Positions 13 through 15,397 of a stretch of 15,494 nt of DNA are shown in pieces. A model generated the notes under the pieces. It saw only the letters and a program-made list of their open reading frames with translations, was not told the origin of the DNA and made no database searches. Both the position numbers and the translations under genes were made by a program. The stretch spans positions 1-15,494 of IMG/VR virus record IMGVR_UViG_2568526635_000004, one strand, 5' to 3'. Each line of letters starts with the position of its first letter. Within the stretch, counting starts at the first letter, position 1. The DNA is from a virus. Taxonomy: Duplodnaviria > Heunggongvirae > Uroviricota > Caudoviricetes.

Positions 13-88
13 CCTCAAAACTGACCACACAACTGACCACACATTTCGTTGAAGCTCTACGAACAACGACGAACAATAACAAACAAAA
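13..88. repeat. Left copy of ~76-bp imperfect direct repeat flanking the element (putative attL); contains internal tandem CTGACCACACA x2 and GAACAA motifs phased at 10 bp
   Basis: Sequence 13-88 reappears at 15320-15397 with 2 substitutions and a 2-nt A-run length difference; every gene of the element lies between the two copies. Confidence 0.7.
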
Positions 89-364
89 GGGAAATTTGCT
101 GGCGGTTTTGCTTAACCGTTATCATTTTCCGGCTATCCGCCATGAAGCTGGTGGATGTTTTTTCTATGCAGATTTGCATAGTTTCAAATGGGGTTGGTCG
201 TTATGGGAATTCCCATATCGGCATCACGCCCACCAGCGTGAAGTATTTTTGTAATTTCGCGGGTGTAAAAATTTGACGAGGCGGGCGGTCCCATAAGCAA
301 TAGGTTGTAGGGATTTCGATCCCCCTCCTGAATGCAATTTTTCGTATATATATATACAAAACAG

Positions 365-517
365 TGCGGGTTATGCGGGTTAGCGGGTTATCTTCGCGTG
401 CTAAGTATTTTTTATTCTTTAATATCAATGCCTTAAAAAATAGCGTGTTTAAATATTATCCAAATCGTAACCCGCAAGTCATTCAAAATAACCCGCAAAC
501 ACCCCCCAAATAACCCG
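365..517. repeat. Iteron cluster: 3 tandem forward GCGGGTTA(T) copies (365-372, 374-381, 382-389), an AT-rich spacer, then 3 inverted copies TAACCCGC (467-474, 488-495, 510-517) at ~21-bp spacing; second origin-like or crr-like site
   Basis: Exact 8-mer matches counted directly; the same motif forms the array at 8647-8769 next to the replication gene; a degenerate copy GCGGGTGTA lies at 259-267. Confidence 0.6.
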
Positions 518-763
518 CAAACGCATCAGGAAAGTGGGTCCAGTGATGCCACCGAACGGCTGAATCGGGTAACGTTCTGTTGCCTGGTTGTTGTTTGCGG
601 GTCAGCAATACTGACGCGCAAAGTTAGTTGTATGTGGCTGTGCGTCCACCAGCTACGCCGGAATGGGGTATTCCGTTTCAACGGAACCGGTATGACGAAC
701 ATGATCGCACCTTCTCCCGAAAACGGTGCGACCTCCATAGAGGAAATGCCTATTCAGATCCCC

Positions 764-1303: not shown

Positions 1304-1597
1304 TTACCGCCGCAACCGCTCCGGCTTCTTCCACTGGTAAGTCTTTTTCTCGCTCTCCCGGTACATCTGCACGCGGCGACGGTAGGCCAGCAACTCGAGA
1401 ACTCTGGTACGTATATCGCGCATATCCACGCCGCTAAGCTCGATACCGTCACGGCGCATCACCTCAGCCACCACACGCGCGTAATTTTCGGCTATCACGC
1501 TGTCCGGCTGCGTGACCTCCTGTTTGCCTGCTGCCTGGCTGATTCCGGTAACGCGGCGGATTATTTTTAGTAGTTCGGTTTCGCTCATTCTCGTCAT
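1304..1597 (-). CDS. Hypothetical small protein (97 aa) translationally coupled to the end of the large terminase gene
   Basis: ATG at 1597 overlaps the terL stop (ATGA overlap, 1594-1597); alternative ATG at 1588 with GGGG ~10 nt upstream; no recognisable motif; basic C-terminus. Confidence 0.55.
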   Translation of the reverse strand: MTRMSETELLKIIRRVTGISQAAGKQEVTQPDSVIAENYARVVAEVMRRDGIELSGVDMRDIRTRVLELLAYRRRVQMYRESEKKTYQWKKPERLRR

Positions 1598-3255
1598 ACC
1601 CCATCAAACGCCGCAAGCCGCTCTTTGTGGCTGTCGCTCATATCGAATGCAAAATCCTCGTGCTCTGCCTGGAATGTGCCAAACGCCATCAGCGCCGCAA
1701 CGCTCGGGTCTATCTTGTTGGATGATTTTTTCTTGTTCGGCTTGATATTGGCGTTTGCGTCACTCTGCATCACAACATTACTCATTGACCAGGCCAGCAC
1801 CGGATCACCACGATGCACAATCACCTTCCGGTTAACAAAAACTTCGAACGATTTCGCCGCCGGACTGAAACGAAGGTATGTTTGCGGGAACGGCTCCACC
1901 TCAAATCCTGCCCCCTGTAGCTGCGTCCTCAGGTGCGTGGCGTTCCATGTATCGAAGCCCACCAGCCTGATATTGAAATTCTCTGCATCCGCCATGATGT
2001 CATCACGGATACGGTCATAATCAATGCAGTCACCCGGTGTTGTGCGTATCCAGCCCGCCTTTACCCACTGGCGATAGATGGCGCGGTTTTTATTGGCGGG
2101 GTTCTGTAGCTGAAATTCCGGCAGATAGTGACGGGAAACCAGCATAATCTTTTTACCGACCGGAAAGGCATAGCACACGCTGGAAATATCGCTGGTTGAT
2201 GATAAGTCCAGCCCCGCGTAGCACTCCTGCCCGTATAAATCCGCCTCCGCGAACGTTCCGGCGCACTCCGCCCATGCACCGTTACCCATCCACGGCGTAG
2301 CCCCCTGACACCAGATATTGAATCGCTTGGTGAGCATTTCCACCCACTGCGACGGAATACCCCGCGCTTTCTGGATGGTTGAGGCCAGTTTTTCACGATC
2401 GACGGAAACATCGATATTGGGATTCGCCTTTATCCACATCGCCGGATCGTCAACCTCGCTTTCATCATCCAGCTCGTAAATCAGCACGAACATGGATTCG
2501 TTCACCTCTTCACCATCCAGTATCTGGCAGCAATAGTCGTAGTGTTGTTTACAGGCTGAAACAACGTTGCTCCCCGATGTGGTGATGGCAAATAATAATC
2601 CCTCCGGACGCGCCCCCATTCCCAGTTCAAGCGCGGAATAAACCCCGTTGTCAGGGTGCAGGTGATATTCATCCACAATGGCAAGACTCGGGTTTGTACC
2701 TTCAATGGTTGCCGCTTTTGCTGCCAGTGGCTTTAACAGGCTGTTGGTTTTCGGGTGTATCACCTTGTGTGCCTGAATATTTACCCGTTTTCGTAACGGT
2801 CGGGATAAAAGGCACATCTGACGCGCATCATCAAACACGATCCGCGCCTGATCACGACTCACGGCGGCGGTGTAAATATCCTGCTGCCCGTTTTCCATAA
2901 CCAGAAACCAGTTAGCCAGGATAGCAGCGACCGTGGATTTGGCATTTTTTCGCGGTACTTCAATGAATGCGCTGGTGTATTTGCGCCGTCCGGTGGCCTT
3001 AACCTTAAAGCCCAGGATGCACGCAAAGGCGAACTGCTGCCACGGCTCCAGCTCAATGGGGCTACCGCGCATTGCGCCTTTTACGTGCGGGCACACCCTG
3101 GAAAAGGCAATAAACCGCTCCACGACCTCCGGATCGAACGTGTAAAGGGGGTTTTCAAGGTCAGAAAAATACCGTTTAACGGCCTGTTTCAGTCGTTTAC
3201 AGGCCGTAATTTTGCCGTTTTTTACGCCTTCTGCGTACTCATGCCAGGCGGTCAA
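1594..3255 (-). CDS. terL: Phage terminase large subunit (ATPase plus nuclease)
   Basis: 553-aa ORF with Walker A-like segment (PRKNAKST) and overall terminase-like layout; TTG start at 3255 preceded by strong AGGAAGAGGA Shine-Dalgarno; overlaps terS end. Confidence 0.93.
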   Translation of the reverse strand: MTAWHEYAEGVKNGKITACKRLKQAVKRYFSDLENPLYTFDPEVVERFIAFSRVCPHVKGAMRGSPIELEPWQQFAFACILGFKVKATGRRKYTSAFIEVPRKNAKSTVAAILANWFLVMENGQQDIYTAAVSRDQARIVFDDARQMCLLSRPLRKRVNIQAHKVIHPKTNSLLKPLAAKAATIEGTNPSLAIVDEYHLHPDNGVYSALELGMGARPEGLLFAITTSGSNVVSACKQHYDYCCQILDGEEVNESMFVLIYELDDESEVDDPAMWIKANPNIDVSVDREKLASTIQKARGIPSQWVEMLTKRFNIWCQGATPWMGNGAWAECAGTFAEADLYGQECYAGLDLSSTSDISSVCYAFPVGKKIMLVSRHYLPEFQLQNPANKNRAIYRQWVKAGWIRTTPGDCIDYDRIRDDIMADAENFNIRLVGFDTWNATHLRTQLQGAGFEVEPFPQTYLRFSPAAKSFEVFVNRKVIVHRGDPVLAWSMSNVVMQSDANANIKPNKKKSSNKIDPSVAALMAFGTFQAEHEDFAFDMSDSHKERLAAFDGV

Positions 3256-3595
3256 GCTCGTCCTCTTCCTCTGTTTCAGGTGGATTTCTGCGGCGGCTTA
3301 CCGGGTCAAAACCCAGCAAAGAAGCCATTTTGATCATTATTCTTTCTGCGTCAGCCTTTGCGCTCAGGGCGGGGTTTCTGCTCTCGCTGCCCTGACTGTT
3401 AACAATGCTGAACCCGCGCGTGGCAAGGTCTTCGACGGCTTTGCGGTATATGGAGTAGTTAACGCAATACAGCTCCAGATTGCTCCAGTCGGCGGGGGTA
3501 AGGTCTTCCCGTCCGGAAAGCTGGCGCGATTTTTCCTTCCACTGCCTGACCGCGATTTCATCCAGGTAAGCGGGGGCTTTTGGTGGTCTTGCCAT
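3239..3595 (-). CDS. terS: Phage terminase small subunit, P27-family-like
   Basis: N-terminus MARPPKAPAYLDE typical of P27-family small terminases; an in-frame ATG at 3736 with better Shine-Dalgarno would add 47 aa, so the true start is uncertain. Confidence 0.78.
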   Translation of the reverse strand: MARPPKAPAYLDEIAVRQWKEKSRQLSGREDLTPADWSNLELYCVNYSIYRKAVEDLATRGFSIVNSQGSESRNPALSAKADAERIMIKMASLLGFDPVSRRRNPPETEEEDELDRLA

Positions 3596-3883
3596 GTTCT
3601 TTTTTCGCCCAATTATTTTCAAAAAAATTCCCGTGCACAAAAATTTGAGGGGGCGGTCGGTGTCCGGCAGGGACGGTTTCGTCCTGAAAACCACCCCCAC
3701 CCCCTCTGACGGCCTCACCAGCGATTGCGAAAACATTCCATGACCTCGCGGTCACGGTCGGTTAATCGCTTCGCTGTGGTGCGTTTTGTGCGCCCTGTCC
3801 TGTTGGCTTTGTGCTCTGTCTCCTGTGTCTTCCATGTGTCACGCTGCCTTATCAGTCCACGTATCAGCCTGGTTTGCTCCTGT

Positions 3884-4324
3884 TCAGTCATCATCGCCAT
3901 ACATCCAGTCGTTACGGTGTGCCGCCCGTTCTTCCTGCTCGCGATACATGCCCGCTTTACGGTTTGCTTTCGTGGCTGGATCTTCCCGTGTCGTCTTACG
4001 GTTGTGGCACGTCTGGCACAATGCCTGGTGATTCCACTCAGGCCAGAAGAGAACATCACCGCCGCCATTGATGGGAATGATGTGATCCACCACAAGAGCT
4101 GGCGTATAAATCCCCTTAGCCAGACAACGCACGCATAACGGGTTTTTGCTCAGGTACAGGGCGCGGTATTTGTCCCACTGTCGGGAATACCCGCGCGCGC
4201 GGCGGTGTCCCCGTCTGGCATCCTCTGCACGCCATGCAGCCCGCCTGTGCTCTTCACACTTGCCGGACTTCACGCGCTTATTACAGCCAGGCTCAGTGCA
4301 TCGCCTTAATGGTTGCCACGGCAT
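3884..4324 (-). CDS. HNH endonuclease (phage packaging-associated)
   Basis: Cys-rich zinc-finger-like N-terminus (CTEPGCNKRVKSGKC), VVDHIIP and NHQALCQTCHNRKT motifs; ATGA overlap with the upstream connector gene. Confidence 0.9.
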   Translation of the reverse strand: MPWQPLRRCTEPGCNKRVKSGKCEEHRRAAWRAEDARRGHRRARGYSRQWDKYRALYLSKNPLCVRCLAKGIYTPALVVDHIIPINGGGDVLFWPEWNHQALCQTCHNRKTTREDPATKANRKAGMYREQEERAAHRNDWMYGDDD

Positions 4325-4626
4325 CAGTACACCCCTACGTCACGATAAACTGACCAGAGCGCAGAAATAGCCATAGGCAGTTCCGAGTGCTCCACTGGTG
4401 AAACCGCTTCCCGGTTCTCGTACAGGAAAGCGATGTACATCAGGCAACCAACACGCATTGCCGGGGTAAATTCCAGCCCGTCTTCAAAACGTTTCCCGAT
4501 ATGCTTCTGGCAGGCTTCCAGCGCCGCATCGGTATACATTTTCAGAAGTTCGCCTTCACCGGATAAATCATCATCAAGTCGAAGATGTGCCCTGACTTCA
4601 TCAGGTGTAATTCTGGCTTCACTCAT
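4324..4626 (-). CDS. gp6-like head-tail connector / adaptor protein
   Basis: Start MSEARITPDEVRAHLRLDDD resembles gp6-like head-tail connector proteins; ATG at 4626 has AGGGAG Shine-Dalgarno; the six-frame ORF extends to 4713 but that part overlaps the portal gene. Confidence 0.78.
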   Translation of the reverse strand: MSEARITPDEVRAHLRLDDDLSGEGELLKMYTDAALEACQKHIGKRFEDGLEFTPAMRVGCLMYIAFLYENREAVSPVEHSELPMAISALWSVYRDVGVY

Positions 4627-5833
4627 CTTTTCTCCCTTTAATTTCCACAGTCTGTTTCCATGCCTGGCTGAACTCATCACCACCTTCACGCGGCGGCATA
4701 CCCTCACGCTCACGGGCTTCGTTCGGATTCATGATCCCGTTCTTAATCCCTTTCTCATACGTGGCATAACGTTCGGTGGGTGTGGCGCGTAATAAATCGG
4801 CTGAATCAAACTCAACCAGATAACGGGTACCAGGTACGGGAGAAGCCACCAGCAAAGCGGCCTTGATTTGCTGTTCGAAGTTCGCCAGCCACGGGCGCAT
4901 TGTCATGGTCAGAAACGCGCGGCTTGCCTCGCTGAAATTGCTGTAGGTGCTGTTGCTGTATTCCTGCAGAAAAATCGGCGACACGTTGAACATCCTGGCG
5001 ATGTCTTCAATGGAGAAGCGACGGGAGGCCAGCCATTCCGCATCCTGGTTACTCATTCCCAGTTGCTTGTAATCCATGCCCCCTTCAAGGATTGGCGTTT
5101 TTCCGGCATTTTTCGCCCCCTTGTAGCGTTCCAGGGCGTCTAATGCCTGTTTACCTTTCACACCGTCCAGCCATTCGCCTGACGTGATAATCCCTGCCGC
5201 CATCATGCCATCTTTCATAATGCTGGCTCCGTGACGCTGTTGAGCAAGGCCAAGCCCCAGCGCCTCACGGCAAATCGTGACGGGGGAACGCCCCAGAAAG
5301 CCATCATCCGAGGCATAGCGGAGATGCAGAACTTCTTCCTGTAAATACGTGCGCACCGTTCCTGTACAGGGTTCGGTGATGGTATAGCGGTATTTGTGTG
5401 CGCCTGTGCGTTCCGGTACAACACACCCCGGCGCATAAGGATGAAGTGATTTTGGCTGCCCGTCCTGCCCCCACTCAATAACCGCATAGGCGTTACCGTT
5501 CAGCAGGCAGTGACGCATCATTGTGCGTTTAAACTGGTAAGGTGTCTGGCACGAATTAGGCTGCTCATTCAGCAGAATATCTACCGGGTGACTGTCCAGC
5601 CATTCCCGCGCCTCCCTGCCCTTGTCATTACGTACCAGATACAGATAACACGGCATCGTGGCCACCGCCTCAGCGATGACAGAAACCGCATTCATCACTG
5701 CAGGCAATGATTCAGCCGTCCCGGCAGAAACATATTCTCCGGATCCGGTATTCGGTACGCCGGACAGCGCCAGAAAATCATCAATGGACAGGTTACGCTG
5801 CTCGCTTTTTTTACGACTAAAAGGCCACCACAT
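4619..5833 (-). CDS. Phage portal protein, HK97 family
   Basis: ~400-aa ORF with portal-like sequence between protease and connector genes; ATG at 5833 with GGGG Shine-Dalgarno chosen over the upstream TTG at 5923, which would overlap the protease gene by ~90 bp. Confidence 0.88.
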   Translation of the reverse strand: MWWPFSRKKSEQRNLSIDDFLALSGVPNTGSGEYVSAGTAESLPAVMNAVSVIAEAVATMPCYLYLVRNDKGREAREWLDSHPVDILLNEQPNSCQTPYQFKRTMMRHCLLNGNAYAVIEWGQDGQPKSLHPYAPGCVVPERTGAHKYRYTITEPCTGTVRTYLQEEVLHLRYASDDGFLGRSPVTICREALGLGLAQQRHGASIMKDGMMAAGIITSGEWLDGVKGKQALDALERYKGAKNAGKTPILEGGMDYKQLGMSNQDAEWLASRRFSIEDIARMFNVSPIFLQEYSNSTYSNFSEASRAFLTMTMRPWLANFEQQIKAALLVASPVPGTRYLVEFDSADLLRATPTERYATYEKGIKNGIMNPNEAREREGMPPREGGDEFSQAWKQTVEIKGRKDE

Positions 5834-5834
5834 A

Positions 5835-6395
5835 TCACAACCCCGCCAGCTCAGACCAGCGATGACGATTATTTCCTGTCGGACGTAATTCAGGGTGCTG
5901 TGCAAACAACGAACGGTGGGCAATCTCCACGCCAGATTCTGGATAAGCAGGCATCGACGTTATTGTGATTTCACGGAGTTCAGCGGCGGTTACGGTACGC
6001 AGATACGGTTTTTGCGCGATACTCCACTCCTCGCATAATGCGCGAAAACCAAAGCTCATTCCTGTAATGTCGCCACGCTCCACCAGCGTAAGCACATCTT
6101 TTCCAAGCTGGGTATCCGGCGGTGTCAGTTCAAAACGTAACCCGGTGTTATCCTCAGTCAGTACCAGAGTGCCGGATTTGGTGCGCCCCAGCAGTTGGGT
6201 ATAGTCATGCTCATACAGGCAGCGCACATCATTACCCGTCGCCAGATAGTCAGCAAAAGCCCCCGGCGTGAACTGTTCGCGGAATTCGTCCCAGATAATT
6301 TCTGAAAGGCTGTTCCAGCGAACGGCATACCCCACCAGCTTTTTATTGCTGGCGGTCAGTTCAGATGTGCGGATTTCAAAATCGGTATTTTTCAT
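5835..6395 (-). CDS. HK97-family prohead (head maturation) protease
   Basis: 186-aa ORF with typical prohead protease segments (GYAVRWN, HDYTQLLGRT); GGAG Shine-Dalgarno 9 nt upstream of the ATG. Confidence 0.9.
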   Translation of the reverse strand: MKNTDFEIRTSELTASNKKLVGYAVRWNSLSEIIWDEFREQFTPGAFADYLATGNDVRCLYEHDYTQLLGRTKSGTLVLTEDNTGLRFELTPPDTQLGKDVLTLVERGDITGMSFGFRALCEEWSIAQKPYLRTVTAAELREITITSMPAYPESGVEIAHRSLFAQHPELRPTGNNRHRWSELAGL

Positions 6396-6449: not shown

Positions 6450-7619
6450 CTAGCCAGCTTTCATTTCCAGAATTTTGATGGCGTTTGAATCCACCACACC
6501 ACCGCCCAGATATTTATCCGTGTGGACCTTGTAGAATCCGGGTTCAGTAATGTTGTCCGGTCGGGTGCGAATCCCTGTTACATGATCAACGATGAAATAA
6601 CCACGACTGAAATCGCCAACCGCTAGCGGTGCTTTTCCTGCGCCGATGTCCGGCATGGACTCCAGGCAGTAAACAGGACGACCAAGCAACATATCCGGCG
6701 CACCTTCTTTAAGGCTGTCGCGCCAGATATAATCGCCGTTCTCATTTTTCAGCTTCTGTAGTGTCCCTGCCGTGCCCGAGTTCATCACCCAGACGGCATT
6801 TTTGCGGTATTTCGCTTTCAGCTTGTAGAGAATGTCGATCAGTTCGTCCGCTGTAATGGCGGTTCCACTTGCCGCTACCATTTTTTCAATGGTGCCAAAA
6901 GCGCGGGTTTTGTCACTGGTCGCCGCACGGGTGTAAGCCATGAAGCCTTTCGGCTTGCCGTTACCGTCGCCATTAACAAAATCATCCTCTTCGGTGCTGA
7001 CGAACGTGTCGGCAATTTCGGAGGATAACCAGCCCAGAATATCCACCTCTGAAAAATCCAGGATTTCCTGCGTGGTTTTCGGGTAGGCGTAGATCGGATT
7101 CAGCTTGATGGTTACGCGTTCAATTTTCGGGGTGTTGGTTTCACTGCGTGCGCTGCCTTCTGTGCCTCGTCCTACAGTTGCGCCGCCAGTGGAAACCAGT
7201 TTCTGAAACTCATTTGATTTTGCGGTCTTCACGGTCGCGATCACGCGCATAACACTGTCATCCTGTAGCTGGCGCATGACTTCGCGATCGAGCTCAGGAA
7301 TTACGGTATATCCGCCATCCCTGCCGCTGTCAGTGCTGGTGGACAGTGATCGCACATCTCCGGTTACGATGTAGTTACGCAATTCATCAGATGATAATTT
7401 CTGGATGCCCGTTCCTGGCTTGCTGCGTTCTTCATCAGCCACAGACTCGAGGCGGGAAATTTCTGTGTCGAGAGAATCGGCTTTTGCACGCAGTTCATCA
7501 AACTGTTTGCCCTCGTCATCGTTCAGGCTGCGGTTTTCACTGTCGGCTTTTTCCAGCAGGGATCGCATCTGGTTTTTCAGGGCGGTTTTTTGCTGGCGGA
7601 GTTCGATTAATTTCTTCAT
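6450..7619 (-). CDS. HK97-fold major capsid protein with N-terminal coiled-coil scaffold (delta-like) domain
   Basis: 389-aa ORF; charged coiled-coil-like N-terminal ~100 aa followed by MCP-like body and a C-terminus typical of HK97 capsid proteins. Confidence 0.92.
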   Translation of the reverse strand: MKKLIELRQQKTALKNQMRSLLEKADSENRSLNDDEGKQFDELRAKADSLDTEISRLESVADEERSKPGTGIQKLSSDELRNYIVTGDVRSLSTSTDSGRDGGYTVIPELDREVMRQLQDDSVMRVIATVKTAKSNEFQKLVSTGGATVGRGTEGSARSETNTPKIERVTIKLNPIYAYPKTTQEILDFSEVDILGWLSSEIADTFVSTEEDDFVNGDGNGKPKGFMAYTRAATSDKTRAFGTIEKMVAASGTAITADELIDILYKLKAKYRKNAVWVMNSGTAGTLQKLKNENGDYIWRDSLKEGAPDMLLGRPVYCLESMPDIGAGKAPLAVGDFSRGYFIVDHVTGIRTRPDNITEPGFYKVHTDKYLGGGVVDSNAIKILEMKAG

Positions 7620-8159: not shown

Positions 8160-8582
8160 CTAAAAGGGTATGTTATCCCCGTATGGATCATCATTCCCCG
8201 CCTGTTGCTTAGCCCTATTTAGAGCGTCAGTAGCCTGGCCCTGCTGGCCTTTTTTGCCACCAGGTCGCGCCGTTCTGGCACTGATTACGCTGTCTGCGAT
8301 AACCTGCCAGCCCTGCCGCGTTTCCCCGTTCTGGCCTGTCCACTGGCTTACCTGCATGTTACCCGCCACGCTCACCAGCTCGCCTTTGTGGTGTTTTGCC
8401 AGTGCGTCGGCCTGTCTGCCAAACGCCAGAACGGATAACCACATCGTCGCCTGTCCGTCATCTGCCTGATTGCACGGCAGGGGGACAGCCATGCTTGCCA
8501 TAGCCATTTGTGTGCCCTTGCTGGTGGTCTTTAACTGCGGGTCAGCCACCAGCCGCCCGTAAGCTGCTATCTGTGCTGTCAT
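8160..8582 (-). CDS. ssb: Single-stranded DNA-binding protein-like (SSB-like) with acidic C-terminal tail
   Basis: 140-aa ORF with OB-fold-like layout, Gly/Gln-rich linker and a C-terminal DDPYGDNIPF resembling the canonical SSB DDDIPF tail; GGAGAA Shine-Dalgarno. Confidence 0.7.
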   Translation of the reverse strand: MTAQIAAYGRLVADPQLKTTSKGTQMAMASMAVPLPCNQADDGQATMWLSVLAFGRQADALAKHHKGELVSVAGNMQVSQWTGQNGETRQGWQVIADSVISARTARPGGKKGQQGQATDALNRAKQQAGNDDPYGDNIPF

Positions 8583-8646
8583 GCTGTCTGTTCTCCGGTT
8601 TTAACGTTGATAGTTACGCTTGTTTACACCCTTACGGTGAAATTCT

Positions 8647-8769
8647 GCGGGTTATAATCGCACTTTTGCGGGTTATAACTGCCGTTTTGCGGGTTACGTG
8701 CGGGTTATTGATTTCCTTTTTATTCATACAGTTAATGCACTTACACACAGGATAACCCGCATAACCCGC
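8647..8769. repeat. Origin-like iteron array: 4 forward GCGGGTTA copies (8647, 8668, 8689, 8700; 21/21/11-bp spacing), AT-rich spacer, 2 tandem inverted copies (8753-8760, 8762-8769)
   Basis: Exact repeats counted in the sequence; located immediately downstream of the primase/helicase gene, with the AT-rich segment 8709-8750 between the arms. Confidence 0.7.
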
Positions 8770-8793
8770 AACTTTTCACCTCACACAGGGGAG

Positions 8794-10917
8794 TTAATCT
8801 TCTGCCTCAGGCTGGAACATCATCACGTAAAAAACATGCTGCTTACCCCCAATTTTGCCGAGCGCCTTTTTCTTGTAACGGCGATCGTTACCCGCTTCCA
8901 GCATTCCGGCAGCACTCAACGCGCGGGCAAAGTGGGATGGGTTAAATCCCTGTGCGATCTCCCCCTCAAACACATGAGGAAACGTGTAAAAACGGAACTC
9001 ATCATCTTCATTTCTGATACTCCCCTTTCTGTATCCGGCAAGGTCTTTAATCGGTAAATCACGCTCGTCGGTGTTGGGCCACGGAAGGTATCTGCTGAAT
9101 CCGAACGACGCTAAAAAAGCCTCTGCCTGTTCAACCATCTGTTTAAACTCCCTGTTACCCGTGCCGAACTCCTTCACCCAGGCATTAAAATTATGCTGAA
9201 TGGCATCGCGGCATTCCTGCTCATTCCAGCCAGTAACATGACCGGAAAGCACAAGCGCGGCCTCCAGTATGGCGAAACGCTCACCCACGCGGTGGACCTG
9301 CTCGCCGTAGCTCTCCGGTATCAGGTTGCGCCACCGTTCACGGCATGCCCTTACCATGTCCTTTGCCTCCTGCTGGTGGTCTGCCAGCCATTTAACCCAC
9401 TCACGCCCCGCCGCCCCGTGATTTTCTGTCCAGGCATCTTTTAACGCGTCTGCGTGCGCCTTTCCGGTGCTGTATTCGTGAAATTGTGTGGCTTTTTCCA
9501 TCGGCACGTTAAGCAGGCGGACAAGCTGCCCCGCCTTGACTTTTATCCCCTCCGTTTTGAGGAATGTTTCAACGTCCATTTCTCCGGTACTGATTGCCAC
9601 CGTTCGCCAGTGTTTTATCTCCCTGTTGCCGCCGTCCTTCGCCCCCTGTAATTTCCCGGAACCGTTAAACAGCGTATAAGCAGACGTTGACACCTCCCGC
9701 GCGTTTCCGGCCTGGCCTATTTCATCCAGGGGTAACAGCCCGTCGTTGTGTGCCTCTGCCTCGTTGGCGATACCTAACGCTGTGCCGTACCAGGTCAGCC
9801 GCTGCGCGTCCGGCTCTCCCCATAAACTTGATGCGATGTTCTGCGTTGTGGTCTTACCTGCCGATGACTGTTCGAAAAGATGTACCCCGAAGCCGTCAGC
9901 ACCCACCAGCCCGATTAATGGTGCGGATAGCGATACCGCCACACCCAGCATCATGGACGGATTACCACCAGCCAGTCGCGCCACACTGTCGCGCCAGCCC
10001 TCCGCCGTTCCTGCCACGGAATAACCATTAACGGCAGCCGTTTTTCCGGTAAACAGGACTGGCTTTTCGCAATCACCAATGACCGAACCGTCCGGCATGA
10101 TGTACGCGCCAAAATGCCAGCCCGTTGTTGTGCTTAACTGCCATTCCTCATGGTTTCCGCTTAACTGCATCCAGTCAGCCAGGATAGCCCTGTATTTACC
10201 GTTGGTTGTCACGTTCAGTCCGTGGTCTTTCAGCAGCCGCCAGCCGTCACGGTCGCCAATGCCACCGCACGGAACCGCCATCGTGATGACTTCATGGTTT
10301 GCTGGCTTTTTCCAGCGCATCACGCGGTAATGCTCTTTGCCGATTGTCCCCGTTCCCAGTAGCTCAAGCGGGGAGCATAACCACGTTTCAGGCCGGATAA
10401 TTTCGCCTGACTGCTTATCCACTTTTGGCGTTACCCAGAAAACACCATCGGCGCGGCTTTCAACGCGGGGCTTTAATTCATCATCACCCGGGCTTTCTGT
10501 GATTTTTTTCTTTAAGGGCAACACCAGACTTTCCCCGCGCTCGTATTCGTCTTTGAGGCGAGGCAACTGGTCGGATAAATCCGCCGGGCTGGTGTCAGTT
10601 ATCCCCGCGTATTCGTATACGGTCTTCACGCCAGCCACAGCCAGCAACGTGACGATCTGTGTGAGGCTACGTTCAGTGATGTGCCCTGCGCGGTAAATAC
10701 GCACACACTGACGGCTATCATCAATAATTTGATAACCGGTAATATCTTTCAGGTGTTCATCTGACAGAACGACAGGCGGCACATTGTCGGCGGCAATATG
10801 CTTACCTGCCCATTCCTGCCACTCTTTCGCATGGCTCCACGCATCACTACCCGCAAAGATGATAACCTCCGTCATTTTGTCGGCTGGCTGGTGCTTTAAG
10901 TTTGGTGCGCGCTTCAT
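8794..10917 (-). CDS. Replication initiation protein, primase/helicase type (P4 alpha-like, Walker A GKT)
   Basis: 707-aa ORF with a central P-loop (FEQSSAGKTTT) and large flanking domains; ATG at 10917 with GGGGAAAGG Shine-Dalgarno, ATGA overlap with the upstream ORF; the exact family was not verified. Confidence 0.8.
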   Translation of the reverse strand: MKRAPNLKHQPADKMTEVIIFAGSDAWSHAKEWQEWAGKHIAADNVPPVVLSDEHLKDITGYQIIDDSRQCVRIYRAGHITERSLTQIVTLLAVAGVKTVYEYAGITDTSPADLSDQLPRLKDEYERGESLVLPLKKKITESPGDDELKPRVESRADGVFWVTPKVDKQSGEIIRPETWLCSPLELLGTGTIGKEHYRVMRWKKPANHEVITMAVPCGGIGDRDGWRLLKDHGLNVTTNGKYRAILADWMQLSGNHEEWQLSTTTGWHFGAYIMPDGSVIGDCEKPVLFTGKTAAVNGYSVAGTAEGWRDSVARLAGGNPSMMLGVAVSLSAPLIGLVGADGFGVHLFEQSSAGKTTTQNIASSLWGEPDAQRLTWYGTALGIANEAEAHNDGLLPLDEIGQAGNAREVSTSAYTLFNGSGKLQGAKDGGNREIKHWRTVAISTGEMDVETFLKTEGIKVKAGQLVRLLNVPMEKATQFHEYSTGKAHADALKDAWTENHGAAGREWVKWLADHQQEAKDMVRACRERWRNLIPESYGEQVHRVGERFAILEAALVLSGHVTGWNEQECRDAIQHNFNAWVKEFGTGNREFKQMVEQAEAFLASFGFSRYLPWPNTDERDLPIKDLAGYRKGSIRNEDDEFRFYTFPHVFEGEIAQGFNPSHFARALSAAGMLEAGNDRRYKKKALGKIGGKQHVFYVMMFQPEAED

Positions 10918-11228
10918 TTTGCCTTTCCCCGTTCACGAATAATTTCACGTACTGCCTTAATGCGTTCCATTCCTGTAACGCGCATGATTCTGTCGATGTC
11001 GCTTAATTCTGCTGGTGGTGCTTTGCTTACCAGGGTGAACTCCCTGTCAAAGCGCATATGTGACGACACGCAGGGATGCGCATAACCTTCGCGGATATAG
11101 GTCACACGAAAATCATCGACGGTTTTAATCGTTATCGTGCTGCCGTATTTATCCCGGAAAATATCACCGGGGCGGATTTCAGGCCGAGCGTGACCGCTGG
11201 CAGTAAAGCCAGAATTTTTCTTTTTCAT
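10914..11228 (-). CDS. Hypothetical protein (104 aa) coupled to the primase gene
   Basis: ORF with ATG start; its stop overlaps the primase start codon; no recognisable motif. Confidence 0.6.
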   Translation of the reverse strand: MKKKNSGFTASGHARPEIRPGDIFRDKYGSTITIKTVDDFRVTYIREGYAHPCVSSHMRFDREFTLVSKAPPAELSDIDRIMRVTGMERIKAVREIIRERGKAK

Positions 11229-11453: not shown

Positions 11454-11688
11454 AATCGCCCCCGCCATTTTCACAATCAGCAATCAGGATGGCTTTAGCC
11501 TCATTCAGCGCCATATCAGCGGTAAGCTGTGCGTAAGCCAGCGAATGCGGGATTATCGCCCCTGTATATTCCGTCTCTCTGGTAATGTGTTTTTCTGCGG
11601 TTGCTACCGTGCATGAAATATCAATCAGCGCGTGCATCAGCGTTTTGATGGCTTCGGCGGCTGCGTCCGGACGGGTGTTATTGCACAT
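11443..11688 (-). CDS. Hypothetical small protein (~81 aa)
   Basis: ATG at 11688 with GGGGG Shine-Dalgarno, overlapping the stop of the Ash/Icd-like ORF; the six-frame ORF extends further upstream but that part overlaps the neighbouring gene. Confidence 0.5.
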   Translation of the reverse strand: MCNNTRPDAAAEAIKTLMHALIDISCTVATAEKHITRETEYTGAIIPHSLAYAQLTADMALNEAKAILIADCENGGGDYAK

Positions 11689-12217
11689 GGCGCACCCCCT
11701 GACGAATACGGGCGGCGAATACAGCGACACAACCTGACGGGCAATGGTTACGCGCTTCGCGTTCCGTCCAGGCGGTGACGTGGATGATTTGGGACTCTGA
11801 CGCGCCAAAGATGATAAAGCGCCAGATAAAGGCAGTTTGGGAATGTACAAGGGTAGGGATAGTAGCCATGTTGGCAGCCTCTTCGTTAGGTTTAATAAAC
11901 CCACCGCAGGAAACGCCAATTTCGCTGGCGGTGGACTGTACAGGGTTGGCGTAACCGGTTAACGAAGAACCCGGCGCGGATTGCTCCGCCCCCATACAGC
12001 CCACCATTGATAAGGTGTGACTATCCGGCACAAAAAAACACGCAGGGCGCGTGTTGTGCGCTTCGTTAAATACCAGGACGCCAATCCCGGCACCAGATTT
12101 TGCTGGTGCGGGTAAATCATAGCCCTGGCTGGCAGTGGCGATCAACAGGTTTTTTACATCGGGTTTATTCAGGTTGTGCGAGTCCCGCCCTTGCGGGTGT
12201 GTGGTATGATTTAGCAT
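11678..12217 (-). CDS. Ash-family-like protein with C-terminal Icd-like (cell-division-inhibitor-like) segment
   Basis: Segments AKSGAGIGV, FFVPDSH, SMVGCMGAEQ, ANPVQSTASEIGVSCGG recall Ash-family proteins of P4-like elements; the C-terminal FIWRF...TEREAR...FAARI recalls Icd-like peptides (an internal ATG at MATIPTL could yield a ~62-aa product); start at 12217 has a GAGGT Shine-Dalgarno. Assignment is from memory of these families, not from a search. Confidence 0.5.
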   Translation of the reverse strand: MLNHTTHPQGRDSHNLNKPDVKNLLIATASQGYDLPAPAKSGAGIGVLVFNEAHNTRPACFFVPDSHTLSMVGCMGAEQSAPGSSLTGYANPVQSTASEIGVSCGGFIKPNEEAANMATIPTLVHSQTAFIWRFIIFGASESQIIHVTAWTEREARNHCPSGCVAVFAARIRQGVRHVQ

Positions 12218-12314
12218 AGCTACCTCGATACGCTTTCTATCGTTGGTGGTTAGAAGCCCTGCGAGTGGTAACGACACTTGCGGGGCTTTGCATTTATGCA
12301 CCTTGATAACCTCA

Positions 12315-12350
12315 AGGTGTGGCCCACTATATGCTTTAGGTGTGGTCCAC
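12315..12350. promoter_or_regulatory. Two operator-like 13-bp direct repeats AGGTGTGG(C/T)CCAC, each containing the dyad GTGG-N-CCAC, in the divergent control region
   Basis: Repeats at 12315-12327 and 12337-12350; immediately upstream of a TATACT -10-like hexamer (12381-12386) and the plus-strand small gene. Confidence 0.5.
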
Positions 12351-12416
12351 GTCAAGGGTTTTATTTGTGCTTTTTCTGTGTATACTGTCCCCCACCAATC
12401 CAACAGAGGAATAGAA

Positions 12417-12596
12417 ATGGCAACGGGTACAACAAACGCAAAATCACAAGCTCTAAAGGCTCGTGTACCACACGAAATAGTAAACGCCATGGAATCAGTG
12501 AAAGAATCAGGCGAAAGCACATCACAATTCATCATTGCGTCAATGCAAGGCGAGATCAAACGCCGCCAGCGCAGGAAGGCCAAAGAGCAGGAATAG
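12417..12596 (+). CDS. Small ribbon-helix-helix-like (Arc/MetJ-type) DNA-binding protein, candidate repressor
   Basis: 59-aa ORF (MATGTTNAKSQALKARVPHEIVNAMESV...) with GAGGAA Shine-Dalgarno 7 nt upstream; N-terminal basic beta-strand-like segment followed by helices; the only plus-strand gene, divergent from the replication operon. Confidence 0.6.
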   Translation: MATGTTNAKSQALKARVPHEIVNAMESVKESGESTSQFIIASMQGEIKRRQRRKAKEQE

Positions 12597-12729
12597 CCCA
12601 CCAGCAAGCCAGCACATTCACCATAATGACCCTCGGTTAAACCTAGAGTCATTGGTGCAAACCTGACAGATTGCCCACCAGCCAGCAAATCGCTATGATG
12701 TTCGGGCTTATGTTTAGTGTTTTCCCATT

Positions 12730-12758
12730 GGCGACCGCCCCCGGTCGCCTTTGTTTTA
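12730..12758 (+). terminator. Rho-independent terminator on the plus strand
   Basis: Perfect 8-bp stem GGCGACCG/CGGTCGCC with CCCC loop followed by TTTGTTTTA; ~135 nt downstream of the plus-strand small gene. Confidence 0.7.
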
Positions 12759-12776
12759 TGTGCCATATACTCCCCT

Positions 12777-13001
12777 TTACGCTGCCTTGCCTGAATTAAT
12801 GCGATCCCGGCTTTTAACCCATTCCATAACCTCGGACAGCAGCCAACCTACAGAACGACCGCCCAGATTAAGACGTGACGGAAAGCATCCTTTTTTCTCC
12901 AGTTCGTAGCGTGTAGTGCGGCACACTCCTGTTAACTTACGGCATTCATCCTCACGGATTACGCGATCTGATAGTGATTGCGATTGTTTGAGTTGGTTCA
13001 T
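12777..13001 (-). CDS. alpA: AlpA-family transcriptional regulator (excisionase-like helix-turn-helix)
   Basis: SDRVIREDECRKLTGVCRTTRYELEKKGCFPSRLNLGGRSVGWLLSEVMEWV matches the AlpA/phage regulatory protein pattern; ATG at 13001 has a GAGGG Shine-Dalgarno (the ORF track extends to 13037). Confidence 0.85.
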   Translation of the reverse strand: MNQLKQSQSLSDRVIREDECRKLTGVCRTTRYELEKKGCFPSRLNLGGRSVGWLLSEVMEWVKSRDRINSGKAA

Positions 13002-13079
13002 ATAAAAACGCCCTCGTTCGTTATCGTTCGAGAGCATTTTTTATGAGAGAAAATAGGTAAGCAATAAACAAAAAAATAA

Positions 13080-14075
13080 TTATTTTTCTTTATTTATTTT
13101 GTATTCGCTAAGTAATTTATAAATTTTAGGTCTAATTTTTTCTAAAAATGGTATAACTGTTTGTTCAAGCCCGAAACCATCACGCTCACCATTGGGATAA
13201 ATCATGGATGCAAGAACACGCTTTGGGACTCTTCTTTTTGTTCCAAATGTATAAAACTTAGCCAACATCAATAAATCCATAAGCGGTATAATTTTATATT
13301 TTATTATTCTCTCTCTCAAATATCCCCATGCCCGTTTGGGTTCAGGCTCTTCTAAATTGAGTTCTTTTCTCCATATCGGTAATAATTTTTTTAAATCAGA
13401 TAATATCTCATCATCTGTTTTTGTAATATCAAGTGACAAGTGCATTGCATAAGAAAAGCCTTCACTATTAGACTTCATCAATTCAGGCGCAACTGCACTT
13501 AAACTCTCATTTGCCAAAGTAAATAGAAGTTCATCATCATACTCAGATAAATAATCGACATCTTCAGAGCTCAACAATAATGTGCGCTCAGTTCCTGCAC
13601 CCGATGATGGTTTTTTCCAAACATAATTTTCAAGCATTATTCTTCGCAAAGGGACTACGGTTCGAGTTGATGATAACATATGAGGAAAAAAACCTTTATA
13701 CAGTTCTTTTCTTATGTTTTTTTCATAAAACGAATAGTCCGCACCAATATCATCGCCAATAACTGAAGATGCAAATATCTTTCTAAACCGACCAGAAACA
13801 AAAGCAATCTCAGTTTCTATTGATGGAATTTTTGAATTAATAATATCTTTTGTCTCATTCTCATCTTCTGGCAAACTCCTTACATCGATAAAATTCTCAT
13901 ACAAATAAGCCATAAAGTGTTCTTCATCTTCTACAACAAACCCCTTTATAAATCTGTTGTAATCCTCTCTACGCATTAACTGAGTAATCAATTCAAAATC
14001 ACTCATATCGGTAAAAACTTCATACTTCCCCAAATTAAAGCCCAATGCTTCTGCAAAATTTTTAAAAGAAATCAT
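13080..14075 (-). CDS. Hypothetical 331-aa cargo protein, strongly AT-rich, unknown function
   Basis: Uninterrupted ORF whose ATG overlaps the integrase stop (ATGA at 14072-14075); nucleotide composition visibly far more AT-rich than the rest of the element; no recognisable catalytic motif by eye. Confidence 0.8.
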   Translation of the reverse strand: MISFKNFAEALGFNLGKYEVFTDMSDFELITQLMRREDYNRFIKGFVVEDEEHFMAYLYENFIDVRSLPEDENETKDIINSKIPSIETEIAFVSGRFRKIFASSVIGDDIGADYSFYEKNIRKELYKGFFPHMLSSTRTVVPLRRIMLENYVWKKPSSGAGTERTLLLSSEDVDYLSEYDDELLFTLANESLSAVAPELMKSNSEGFSYAMHLSLDITKTDDEILSDLKKLLPIWRKELNLEEPEPKRAWGYLRERIIKYKIIPLMDLLMLAKFYTFGTKRRVPKRVLASMIYPNGERDGFGLEQTVIPFLEKIRPKIYKLLSEYKINKEK

Positions 14076-15292
14076 TTGCTAACCTTCAAAATAACAACAT
14101 TTTCATTATTACCAACTAACACATCGAGACGTTCAACCCATAGATTCAGAGCGTCCCGCTTCGCCTGTAAATAGCGTGAATGGTTATAGGTTTTTTGCTG
14201 ACCAGGCATCTGATGCGCTGTGATGTGCTCCACGATATGCGGATCGACACCTAAATCGTTCAGCATCGTTGTAAACGTGTGGCGAAAGTCATGCAGCGTC
14301 CAGTGTTCCTGGTTAAGCCGCTTATGCGCATTTCGCCCATATTGCGCTACCGTGGTATCTTTTTTCAGTTCTCCGAGTAACAACCCTGTATGCCGGTTCT
14401 GCTCCACCAGCTTCTGAATGAACGGCAAAATGCCATCGGGTATTGGCCTGAATATCGTTACCTTCGTTTTGCTGTGCTCTTTTGGCACTGTCCACAACAT
14501 TTCTTTCAGATCCCATTCTTTGATCTCTGAAAGTCTGACCTCTGCCGTTCTGCACCCGAACACAATCAGCAAGCGCATTAACGCGCTGTAGTAAGGCGCG
14601 AACACATCACCATCAATAGCGCGTAAAATTTCCTTTAATTCGCTGTTGCTGTGCACCCTCTCGCGAATTTCTGCTCTCTTACCCACATCGCTGACGATCA
14701 AATCGTCCAGGGCATTACTGAACGCGTAGCGCCTCCTGCGGCAGAACTTTAGCGCCTGTTTGCAGGTTTGCATGACGTGCCCTGCTGCTACTGGTGCTTT
14801 TTTTCGTACACGGTCAAAACATGCGATCCACTGCCTTGTATCGCATTTATCAAGAGGAATTGCCCCTATATGGCAAATGATGTGCTTATCCATACGTTGC
14901 ACCAGCTTTATGTAGTCTTTGCGGTTATCCTTCGCGTATTCCTCCAGCCAGTAGTTAATCGCCTCCTTTACCGTAACGGGTTTTAGTGATTCCTGTACTG
15001 TGGCGCACAACTCATAACGGGGGTTTTTACCCTCAGCCAGCCATGCCCGGCACTGTGTGCGTTTTTCCCTTGCGGCTTTCAGCGACAATTCCGGATAAGC
15101 CCCCAACTTTAGCCGCTCAGCGGCAACCTCACGGCCTCCCGTTCGATACCGGAAATACCAGGTTAATTTGCCGCCCTTTGAGTGTTTAATCTCCAGCCCG
15201 CCCCCGTCGGAGTAAAAACGCTCTTTTTCTGCCTGGACAGCCGCTAATTTTTTTAACGTCGAATCGCTCAGTTTGTTTAGTGCTTTTCCCAC
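14072..15292 (-). CDS. int: Tyrosine recombinase / integrase, P4 type (N-terminal arm-binding domain plus catalytic domain)
   Basis: 406-aa ORF; N-terminus LSDSTLKKL...GGLEIKHSKGGKLTWYFRYR typical of P4-like integrase arm-binding domains; catalytic HDFRHTF and C-terminal Tyr region; GTG start at 15292 with AAGAGGA Shine-Dalgarno; adjacent to the right direct repeat. Confidence 0.93.
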   Translation of the reverse strand: MGKALNKLSDSTLKKLAAVQAEKERFYSDGGGLEIKHSKGGKLTWYFRYRTGGREVAAERLKLGAYPELSLKAAREKRTQCRAWLAEGKNPRYELCATVQESLKPVTVKEAINYWLEEYAKDNRKDYIKLVQRMDKHIICHIGAIPLDKCDTRQWIACFDRVRKKAPVAAGHVMQTCKQALKFCRRRRYAFSNALDDLIVSDVGKRAEIRERVHSNSELKEILRAIDGDVFAPYYSALMRLLIVFGCRTAEVRLSEIKEWDLKEMLWTVPKEHSKTKVTIFRPIPDGILPFIQKLVEQNRHTGLLLGELKKDTTVAQYGRNAHKRLNQEHWTLHDFRHTFTTMLNDLGVDPHIVEHITAHQMPGQQKTYNHSRYLQAKRDALNLWVERLDVLVGNNENVVILKVSK

Positions 15293-15319: not shown

Positions 15320-15397
15320 CCTCAAAAAACTGACCACACAACTGACCACACATTTTGTTGAAGCTCTACGAACAACGACGAACAACAACAAACAAGA
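15320..15397. repeat. Right copy of the ~76-bp imperfect direct repeat (putative attR), immediately upstream of int
   Basis: See left copy at 13-88. Confidence 0.7.

Follow-up and report, generated by a model that had tools for sequence, protein, structure and literature searches.

The analyzed stretch of DNA (hereafter referred to as the window) has a length of 15,494 bp and carries an element of 15,309 bp, the att sites of which are marked by 70-nt direct repeats. No tRNA gene was found at the ends of this island. All of its genes are located on the minus strand, and their coordinates, together with those of the repeats and of the putative origin features, are collected in Table 1.

Table 1. 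Genes, att repeats and putative origin features distinguished within the window.
Feature	Coordinates	Strand	Remarks
att direct repeat, island end beside U2	17-86	+	97% identical to 15326-15395
TATATATA element, outer edge of U2	338-361		found beside U2 in all genera inspected, also where the origin is contiguous
putative origin unit U2, displaced by 8.1 kb	366-518	-	iteron geometry and homology to U2 of the Sakai island
A+T-rich spacer of U2	391-467		73% A+T; holds the IHF consensus and TTATCCAAA
TerL	1594-3255	-	
TerS	3239-3736	-	
HNH endonuclease	3884-4324	-	
head-tail connector	4324-4713	-	
portal	4619-5923	-	
prohead protease	5835-6395	-	
major capsid protein	6450-7619	-	
ssb	8160-8582	-	first gene of the block separating U1 from U2; Pfam SSB, E = 1.2e-16
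putative origin unit U1	8647-8769	-	iteron positions; same geometry past the rep stop in loci with more than ten iteron sequences
A+T-rich spacer of U1	8708-8752		candidate melting region; 69% A+T and low duplex stability
C-terminal ~106 codons of rep	8797-9114	-	exchangeable specificity module, presumed iteron-binding domain; break of homology with E. albertii
707-aa DUF927 Rep-type helicase (rep)	8794-10917	-	presumed initiator; Pfam, PDB and phrog matches
DUF4222	10914-11228	-	
Ash-domain protein	11678-12766	-	
AlpA	12777-13037	-	
DUF6387 gene	13080-14075	-	low GC
tyrosine integrase (int)	14072-15292	-	
att direct repeat, island end beside int	15326-15395	+	70-nt repeat

According to the published criteria, cf-PICIs are elements of about 10-18 kb comprising int, regulation and replication modules, as well as genes for capsid, protease, portal, connector, HNH, TerS and TerL, and devoid of tail and lysis genes (10.1101/2025.02.11.637232). 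The size of the island and its gene set, as read from the sequence, fit these criteria, and a related island of the same type is carried by E. coli O157:H7 Sakai (locus L002). The window most probably represents a 15.3-kb capsid-forming PICI-type satellite of E. coli, and this assignment is a part of the explanation that we consider the best for the features described below.

Several other properties of the island were noted. The DUF6387 gene, placed between int and alpA, has a G+C content of 30-35%, compared with approximately 52% for the rest of the island, which suggests that it is a recently acquired cargo at a variable slot; other genes occupy this slot in loci L001 and L002. A 44-nt repeat is present in three copies (802-845, 1210-1253 and 1264-1307, the latter two being 89% and 64% identical to the first), each holding a match to the IHF consensus, in a stretch of poor coding character that separates U2 from the head-tail genes; the whole region 500-1300 is characterized by such odd repeats and by no clear genes. 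The commonest 8-mer of the window is Chi, GCTGGTGG, found in 17 copies against 0.5 in shuffled sequences. Twelve of these are on the coding (minus) strand, and the sites include 230, 646, 1959, 4846, 6080, 6332, 8546, 9903 and 9965. Chi is present in 14 copies in each of L001 and L002 (loci of 24.6-24.8 kb, chromosomal flanks included).

Iteron clusters and the adjacent helicase gene

The octamer GCGGGTTA is present in 12 exact copies in the window, all of them within two clusters of six copies each, and both clusters lie inside the att repeats. In 200 dinucleotide-preserving shuffles of the window its mean count was 0.52 and the maximum was 4, i.e., none of the shuffled sequences reached 12. 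Eleven of the 12 copies extend to the 9-mer TGCGGGTTA, which constitutes the full repeat.

The cluster designated U1 had been described in the earlier note as an origin-like array, composed of four forward copies at two-helical-turn spacing, an AT-rich stretch and two inverted copies. All six copies were found exactly where they had been placed, i.e., forward (+) at 8647, 8668, 8689 and 8700, and inverted (-) at 8753 and 8762. The proposed spacing holds for the first three forward copies (21 and 21 bp), but not for the fourth, which follows after 11 bp, approximately one helical turn. The AT-rich stretch was also confirmed: the U1 spacer contains 69% A+T, compared with 50% for the window, and falls within the least stable approximately 2% of 40-bp duplex windows. 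When read from the rep stop, U1 consists of two tandem iterons (8762 and 8753), a spacer of 45 bp and four opposite iterons (8700, 8689, 8668 and 8647) spaced by 11, 21 and 21 bp. The distance from the stop codon of the 707-aa ORF (8794-8796, minus strand) to the unit is 24 bp, and 64 bp separate the other end of the unit from the start of ssb. Neither the IHF consensus nor a DnaA box was found in the U1 spacer, nor any DnaA box elsewhere in U1, and within 8400-9000 there were no promoter-like or terminator-like sites above chance.

The second cluster, U2, was missed in the earlier note; the array at 8647-8769, although real, would be only the proximal half of a two-unit origin. On the given strand, U2 opens with three forward copies in tandem, followed by a spacer of 77 bp and then by three inverted copies at intervals of 21-22 bp; with rep as the reference, its order is three iterons spaced by 22 and 21 bp (511, 489 and 468), the spacer, and three opposite tandem iterons (383, 375 and 366). 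All six 8-mers exactly match the iteron of the resident Rep. The two clusters reproduce exactly the U1 and U2 patterns of the related loci described below; their relative orientation is preserved, and U2 follows 8,135 bp further in the rep direction. Outside the low-GC gene, no 40-bp duplex of the island is less stable than 402-441 in the spacer of U2, and the next in instability are the U1 spacer and the TATATA element beside U2.

The spacer of U2 also contains an exact IHF consensus (TATCAATGCCTTA) at 423-435 and a DnaA box with one mismatch (TTATCCAAA) at 456-464. Moreover, a pair of cos-like sequences, AAAAATTTGA.G.GGCGG.CGGT, 76% identical over 37 nt, was found at 253-289, beside U2 and near the att repeat, and at 3625-3661, between the HNH gene and terS. 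The segment 214-362 of the window shares 87% identity with the terminal part of a non-capsid E. albertii island (L004 14579-14725).

The 707-aa protein encoded next to U1 matches Pfam DUF927 (E = 5.7e-46) and phrog_1139 (E = 2e-174), and comparison with PDB indicated the 'pathogenicity island protein' 8tch (E = 4.7e-15) and, weakly, Cch (5dgk, E = 2.4e-3). These similarities support a presumed role of this protein as a helicase-initiator. Of the 'primase/helicase' label used in the earlier note, the helicase component is thus supported, but the 'primase' component is not endorsed. Relatives of about 900 aa possess a Zn-ribbon and a Toprim primase domain (CPxCGG..., AEG[IL]ATA, AADND), whereas the 144-residue N-terminus of the 707-aa form is unrelated to theirs and lacks Zn-ribbon and Toprim; a BLASTP comparison with the Zn-ribbon/Toprim part of a 900-aa relative gave no similarity before residue 145. 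Residues 1-144 match only phrog_2850 (of unknown function) and, weakly, phrog_864.

For the C-terminal domain, a sub-threshold match to Pfam HTH_56 ('Cch helix turn helix', E = 1.3e-3) was obtained, and the AlphaFold model of the last 143 residues, based on a 15-sequence alignment, has a pLDDT of 47, too low a value to establish a fold. A profile search with this domain alone against PDB sequences gave no match, and an analogous protein search returned gene fragments only, with no new domain contexts; these fragments were used in the alignment of the domain.

Putative origin organization in related loci

For the comparative analysis, 80 Enterobacterales loci encoding relatives of the 707-aa protein were collected in a scan of one genome per species. 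It was revealed that nearly all of them carry a 7-mer repeated up to 12 times within 450 bp past the rep stop, the first iteron being located at +22 to +31 bp (approximately 26 bp) in 20 related loci. In this family U1 begins with a tandem of two or three copies, continues with an A+T-rich spacer of 52-66 bp and ends with four opposite copies spaced by 11, 21 and 21 bp; in the contiguous form a gap of 45-70 bp leads to U2, in which three copies spaced by 22 and 21 bp are separated by a spacer of 52-86 bp from three opposite copies in tandem. This geometry is constant although the iteron sequence varies, with more than ten different iteron sequences recorded.

The sequence of the iteron tracks the last approximately 35 residues of the protein. 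The tail KKKAL..GGKQH was paired with the core GGGTTA in all eight loci that carry it, QRKSPR..RQ with TGGTTCA in 37 of 38 loci and GRVRE.GRQ with GAGACAAC in five of five, while further tails pair with GGGACAA, CGGTTCA, TGTGTCA, GGTACAAC or GGGATAA. In one E. coli island, whose ssb is 93% identical but whose primase belongs to a different family, GCGGGTTA is absent and TCTACC(C/T) repeats occupy the corresponding position. On the basis of the position of the array, its layout and this sequence comparison, its reading as an initiator-specific origin of the SaPI/PICI type is supported.

Seventy-six of the loci could be assessed for the arrangement of the two units, the contiguous form being defined as about 12 iterons (nine or more) in two adjacent units. 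This form was found in 40 loci, and in 32 others the proximal half only was present near rep. In six of the latter (L004, L022, L030, L036, L037 and L058) a clear U2 was identified 2.3-9.0 kb downstream; since the search for distal units allowed one mismatch and gave some doubtful matches, only these six, with clear U2 geometry, were counted. In many loci with U1 only, no U2 was found within the 10-kb flank; it may therefore be that U1 is sufficient by itself, with U2 being dispensable or serving some other purpose.

In the Sakai island, a homologue of window positions 347-500 (L002 11793-11946, 80% identity) directly abuts U1 (L002 11812-12125). As the same unit lies 8 kb away in the window, the putative origin of the analyzed island appears to be split, and the 8.1 kb between U1 and U2 are occupied by ssb and the complete capsid and packaging module. 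A census of 5,426 complete E. coli genomes revealed the split-type ssb-U1 junction in 133 genomes, the distal U2 in 133 and the contiguous form in 140. In spot checks of TUM1881, AH19B041 and JP538, U1 and U2 were 8-9 kb apart and on the same strand. The split form, with matched motifs, is present also in other genera. Among the E. coli genome matches, those retaining rep start at 8645, i.e., at the first iteron, and those retaining ssb stop at 8615; these module borders agree with the comparative evidence for the origin.

The most informative case is the E. albertii island L004, in which rep is 93.6% identical over 9115-10919; the homology ends at 9115, and the last approximately 106 codons differ. 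U1 of this island is made of GGGACAAG, with the iteron GGGACA(A/G), and in its U2, located 2.3 kb downstream, GGGACA occupies the same positions. At the same time, the flank of U2 (TATATATA up to the cos-like sequence) is 87% identical to 214-362 of the window, and ssb is 86% identical. Both units co-vary with the C-terminal tail of the protein, and L004, in which tail, U1 and U2 have switched together against a conserved background, is the strongest single piece of evidence obtained in this work.

Two further observations concern the borders of the units. In every lineage inspected, and whatever the iteron, a TATATA(TA) sequence is located 8-15 bp past the last tandem iteron of U2; it was seen at L002 11793-11803 and just after U2 in the six loci with a distal unit listed above, and an unwinding start or a promoter was considered as its role. 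In islands with the contiguous origin, an 83-aa gene separates the origin from ssb (L002 11527-11778; L003 12419-12670), and in the window a 30-bp junction (8615-8645) stands in place of this gene and U2.

Putative functioning of the two-unit origin

Taken together, these data indicate that the 707-aa protein is probably an initiator of the SaPI-Rep/Cch type, and that 8647-8769 and 366-518 are probably the units U1 and U2 of one island origin. According to this model, which is built from sequence comparison, the variable C-terminal tail of Rep would recognize the 9-bp iteron at both units. Once the island is induced and excised, Rep would attach to U1 and U2, open their A+T-rich spacers and self-load as a hexamer, in the way proposed for the Reps of SaPIs, and two units would give two hexamers and, consequently, bidirectional replication. 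The assumption of one hexamer per unit comes solely from the count of six: a unit has as many iterons as a hexamer has C-terminal domains, and such a stoichiometry is thereby suggested. The binding and the melting, like the single hexamer per unit and the cooperation between U1 and U2, are what we infer for this system. It may also be tentatively proposed that the origin of the whole DUF927-Rep family is a two-module device with one hexamer per module, capable of working, and of co-evolving with the tail, across 2-9 kb of cargo.

It is conceivable, but rather unlikely, that U1 and U2 are independent, redundant origins that fire separately and do not cooperate. Autonomy of the units would be in line with three observations: iterons of both orientations surround an unstable spacer in U1 as well as in U2, U1 was the only unit within reach in many relatives, and the origins of SaPIs sometimes contain only six iterons (PMC9371898). 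The 2+4 and 3+3 geometries, however, are separately conserved in every lineage, so the units are not duplicates of each other, and in L004 both were retained and switched together. A role of U2 as a control locus is improbable. Such a locus might titrate Rep or handcuff with U1, as incA of P1 or the additional iterons of iteron plasmids may serve to illustrate, or it might be an enhancer that never melts, with the function of crr in P4 as the term of comparison. The presence of the same iterons far from the initiator-proximal unit, and the comparable two-site arrangement of P4, would speak for it; yet no segment of the core island melts more easily than the spacer of U2, its IHF consensus and DnaA-box-like sequence fit an opening site better than passive titration, and U2 directly abuts U1 in 40 of the 76 assessable relatives.

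Two further explanations seem very improbable. In one of them, U1 would be an operator or promoter of the ssb-packaging operon and U2 a set of accessory sites for terminase or cos, bound by a regulator or TerS and not by Rep. U1 is indeed upstream of ssb, and U2 adjoins the cos-like sequence at 253-289, which resembles that between HNH and terS. The lack of promoter-like and terminator-like signals in 8400-9000, combined with the co-variation of the iteron and the Rep tail across genera, argues against an operator or terminator; moreover, L004 keeps the cos-like flank and changes the iterons, and the Sakai homologue of U2 is located beside rep, far from terS and cos. The segment 366-518 could also be a relic of a second, decayed tandem island with no part in the biology of the element, given that 112-362 is similar to the terminus of another, non-capsid island and that 500-1300 has the odd repeats and no clear genes. 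The cluster is, however, within the att repeats, its six 8-mers exactly match the resident iteron, and the same layout is shared by about 133 genomes of E. coli and occurs also in other genera. Furthermore, U2 is absent from its usual place beside U1, which means that the two halves are complementary and not duplicated, and this also speaks against a relic.

The preferred reading, i.e., one origin of two units, has to be viewed in the light of what is already known of such islands. Taken alone, the array is an ordinary, expected PICI origin. In the searchable open-access text no description of a cf-PICI origin was found, and nothing usable was retrieved for the iteron sequence itself or for a description of P4 crr. 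What the present analysis adds, and was not found in the searchable literature, is the fixed two-unit, 12-iteron plan, the map of tails to iterons and the recurrent split across 2-9 kb. The plan is constant across more than ten specificity classes, and the tails of about 35 residues paired with iterons of 7-9 bp, together with the natural tail swaps, constitute a dataset on how helicase-initiators read DNA. Such pairing could be used to predict which satellites cross-replicate or exclude each other. The split form (about 133 of 5,426 complete E. coli genomes) can be regarded as a natural experiment in which the halves were placed 8 kb apart, and it bears on the question of whether they cooperate at a distance, as P4 ori and crr do, or act alone. 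If the two-module proposal is true, a long-range bipartite origin arose independently of P4 ori/crr, and self-loading helicases of this kind need no head-to-head double hexamer at one site.

Comparison with known replication systems

In iteron plasmids, such as pPS10, RK2, F and P1, initiators of the Rep_3 (WH1-WH2) type recruit the host DnaB, and the origin is a one-sided array of direct repeats of approximately 17-22 bp beside DnaA boxes and a DUE; some of these plasmids have extra iteron clusters outside the origin. The island shares with them repeated initiator sites phased by about two helical turns beside an A+T-rich unwinding region, but its repeats of 8-9 bp form inverted sets around a spacer and not a one-sided tandem array. 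A plasmid origin of the Rep_3 type was rejected, as no such Pfam domain was found in the island, its repeats are of 8-9 bp in inverted sets and U1 is devoid of DnaA boxes. The iteron-origin reading proposed in the earlier note gained support from position, layout and comparison; this support does not extend to a classic plasmid type with a Rep_3 initiator.

Much closer counterparts are the SaPI and PICI families, in which the origin is directly 3' of rep and the iterons surround an A+T-rich region (PMC6092414, PMC9371898). The Reps of SaPIs are self-loading hexameric helicases that bind the iterons with a C-terminal winged-helix domain, and their 6-12 iterons follow rep closely, being divided equally between the two sides of an A+T-rich center (PMC9371898). 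Gram-negative PICIs show the same origin organization, and the rep-ori segment of EcCICFT073 drives plasmid replication (PMC6092414); rep and ori are sufficient for autonomous replication in both EcCICFT073 and SaPIs (PMC6092414). As in the Pri-Rep-ori replicons of SaPIbov1, SaPI1, SaPI5 and EcCICFT073, the presumed initiator of the island is a DUF927 helicase homologous to a solved SaPI protein, the putative origin is directly 3' of its gene, an A+T-rich region is enclosed by short iterons of both orientations, and the specificity is assigned to the C-terminal domain. The number of iterons, 4 + 2 copies in U1 and 12 when U2 is counted, also corresponds to the range of 6-12 in SaPIs and PICIs. 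The differences concern the length of the iterons (8-9 bp, as opposed to the penta- and hexanucleotides described for SaPIs), the presence in the family of two units of fixed and unlike geometry (2+4 and 3+3), here 8.1 kb apart, and the lack of a recognizable primase domain in the 707-aa protein. Cch of SCCmec, an MCM-like DUF927 helicase, belongs to the same helicase family (weak match to 5dgk), and the C-terminal region of the island protein weakly matches HTH_56.

The arrangement of the two units finds its nearest parallel in phage P4, where, according to the GenBank annotation, crr (4291-4590) is located directly after alpha, and ori (9086-9809), with the same type-1 repeats, 4.7 kb away. 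In both elements, one type of iteron is grouped in two clusters separated by kilobases, one of them directly after the initiator gene, and the initiator is a single multifunctional satellite protein. The iteron itself, the copy numbers and the geometry of P4 are unlike those of the island. An initiator of the alpha family was considered and rejected: there was no tblastn match to P4, and hhalign gave probabilities of 0.06% (C-terminal domain) and 0.28% (full-length protein). As alpha is not detectably related to the 707-aa protein, the split origin of the island would not be a member of the P4 family. To our knowledge, the split arrangement is the only known form in P4, whereas in the family of the analyzed island the contiguous and split forms coexist among close relatives.
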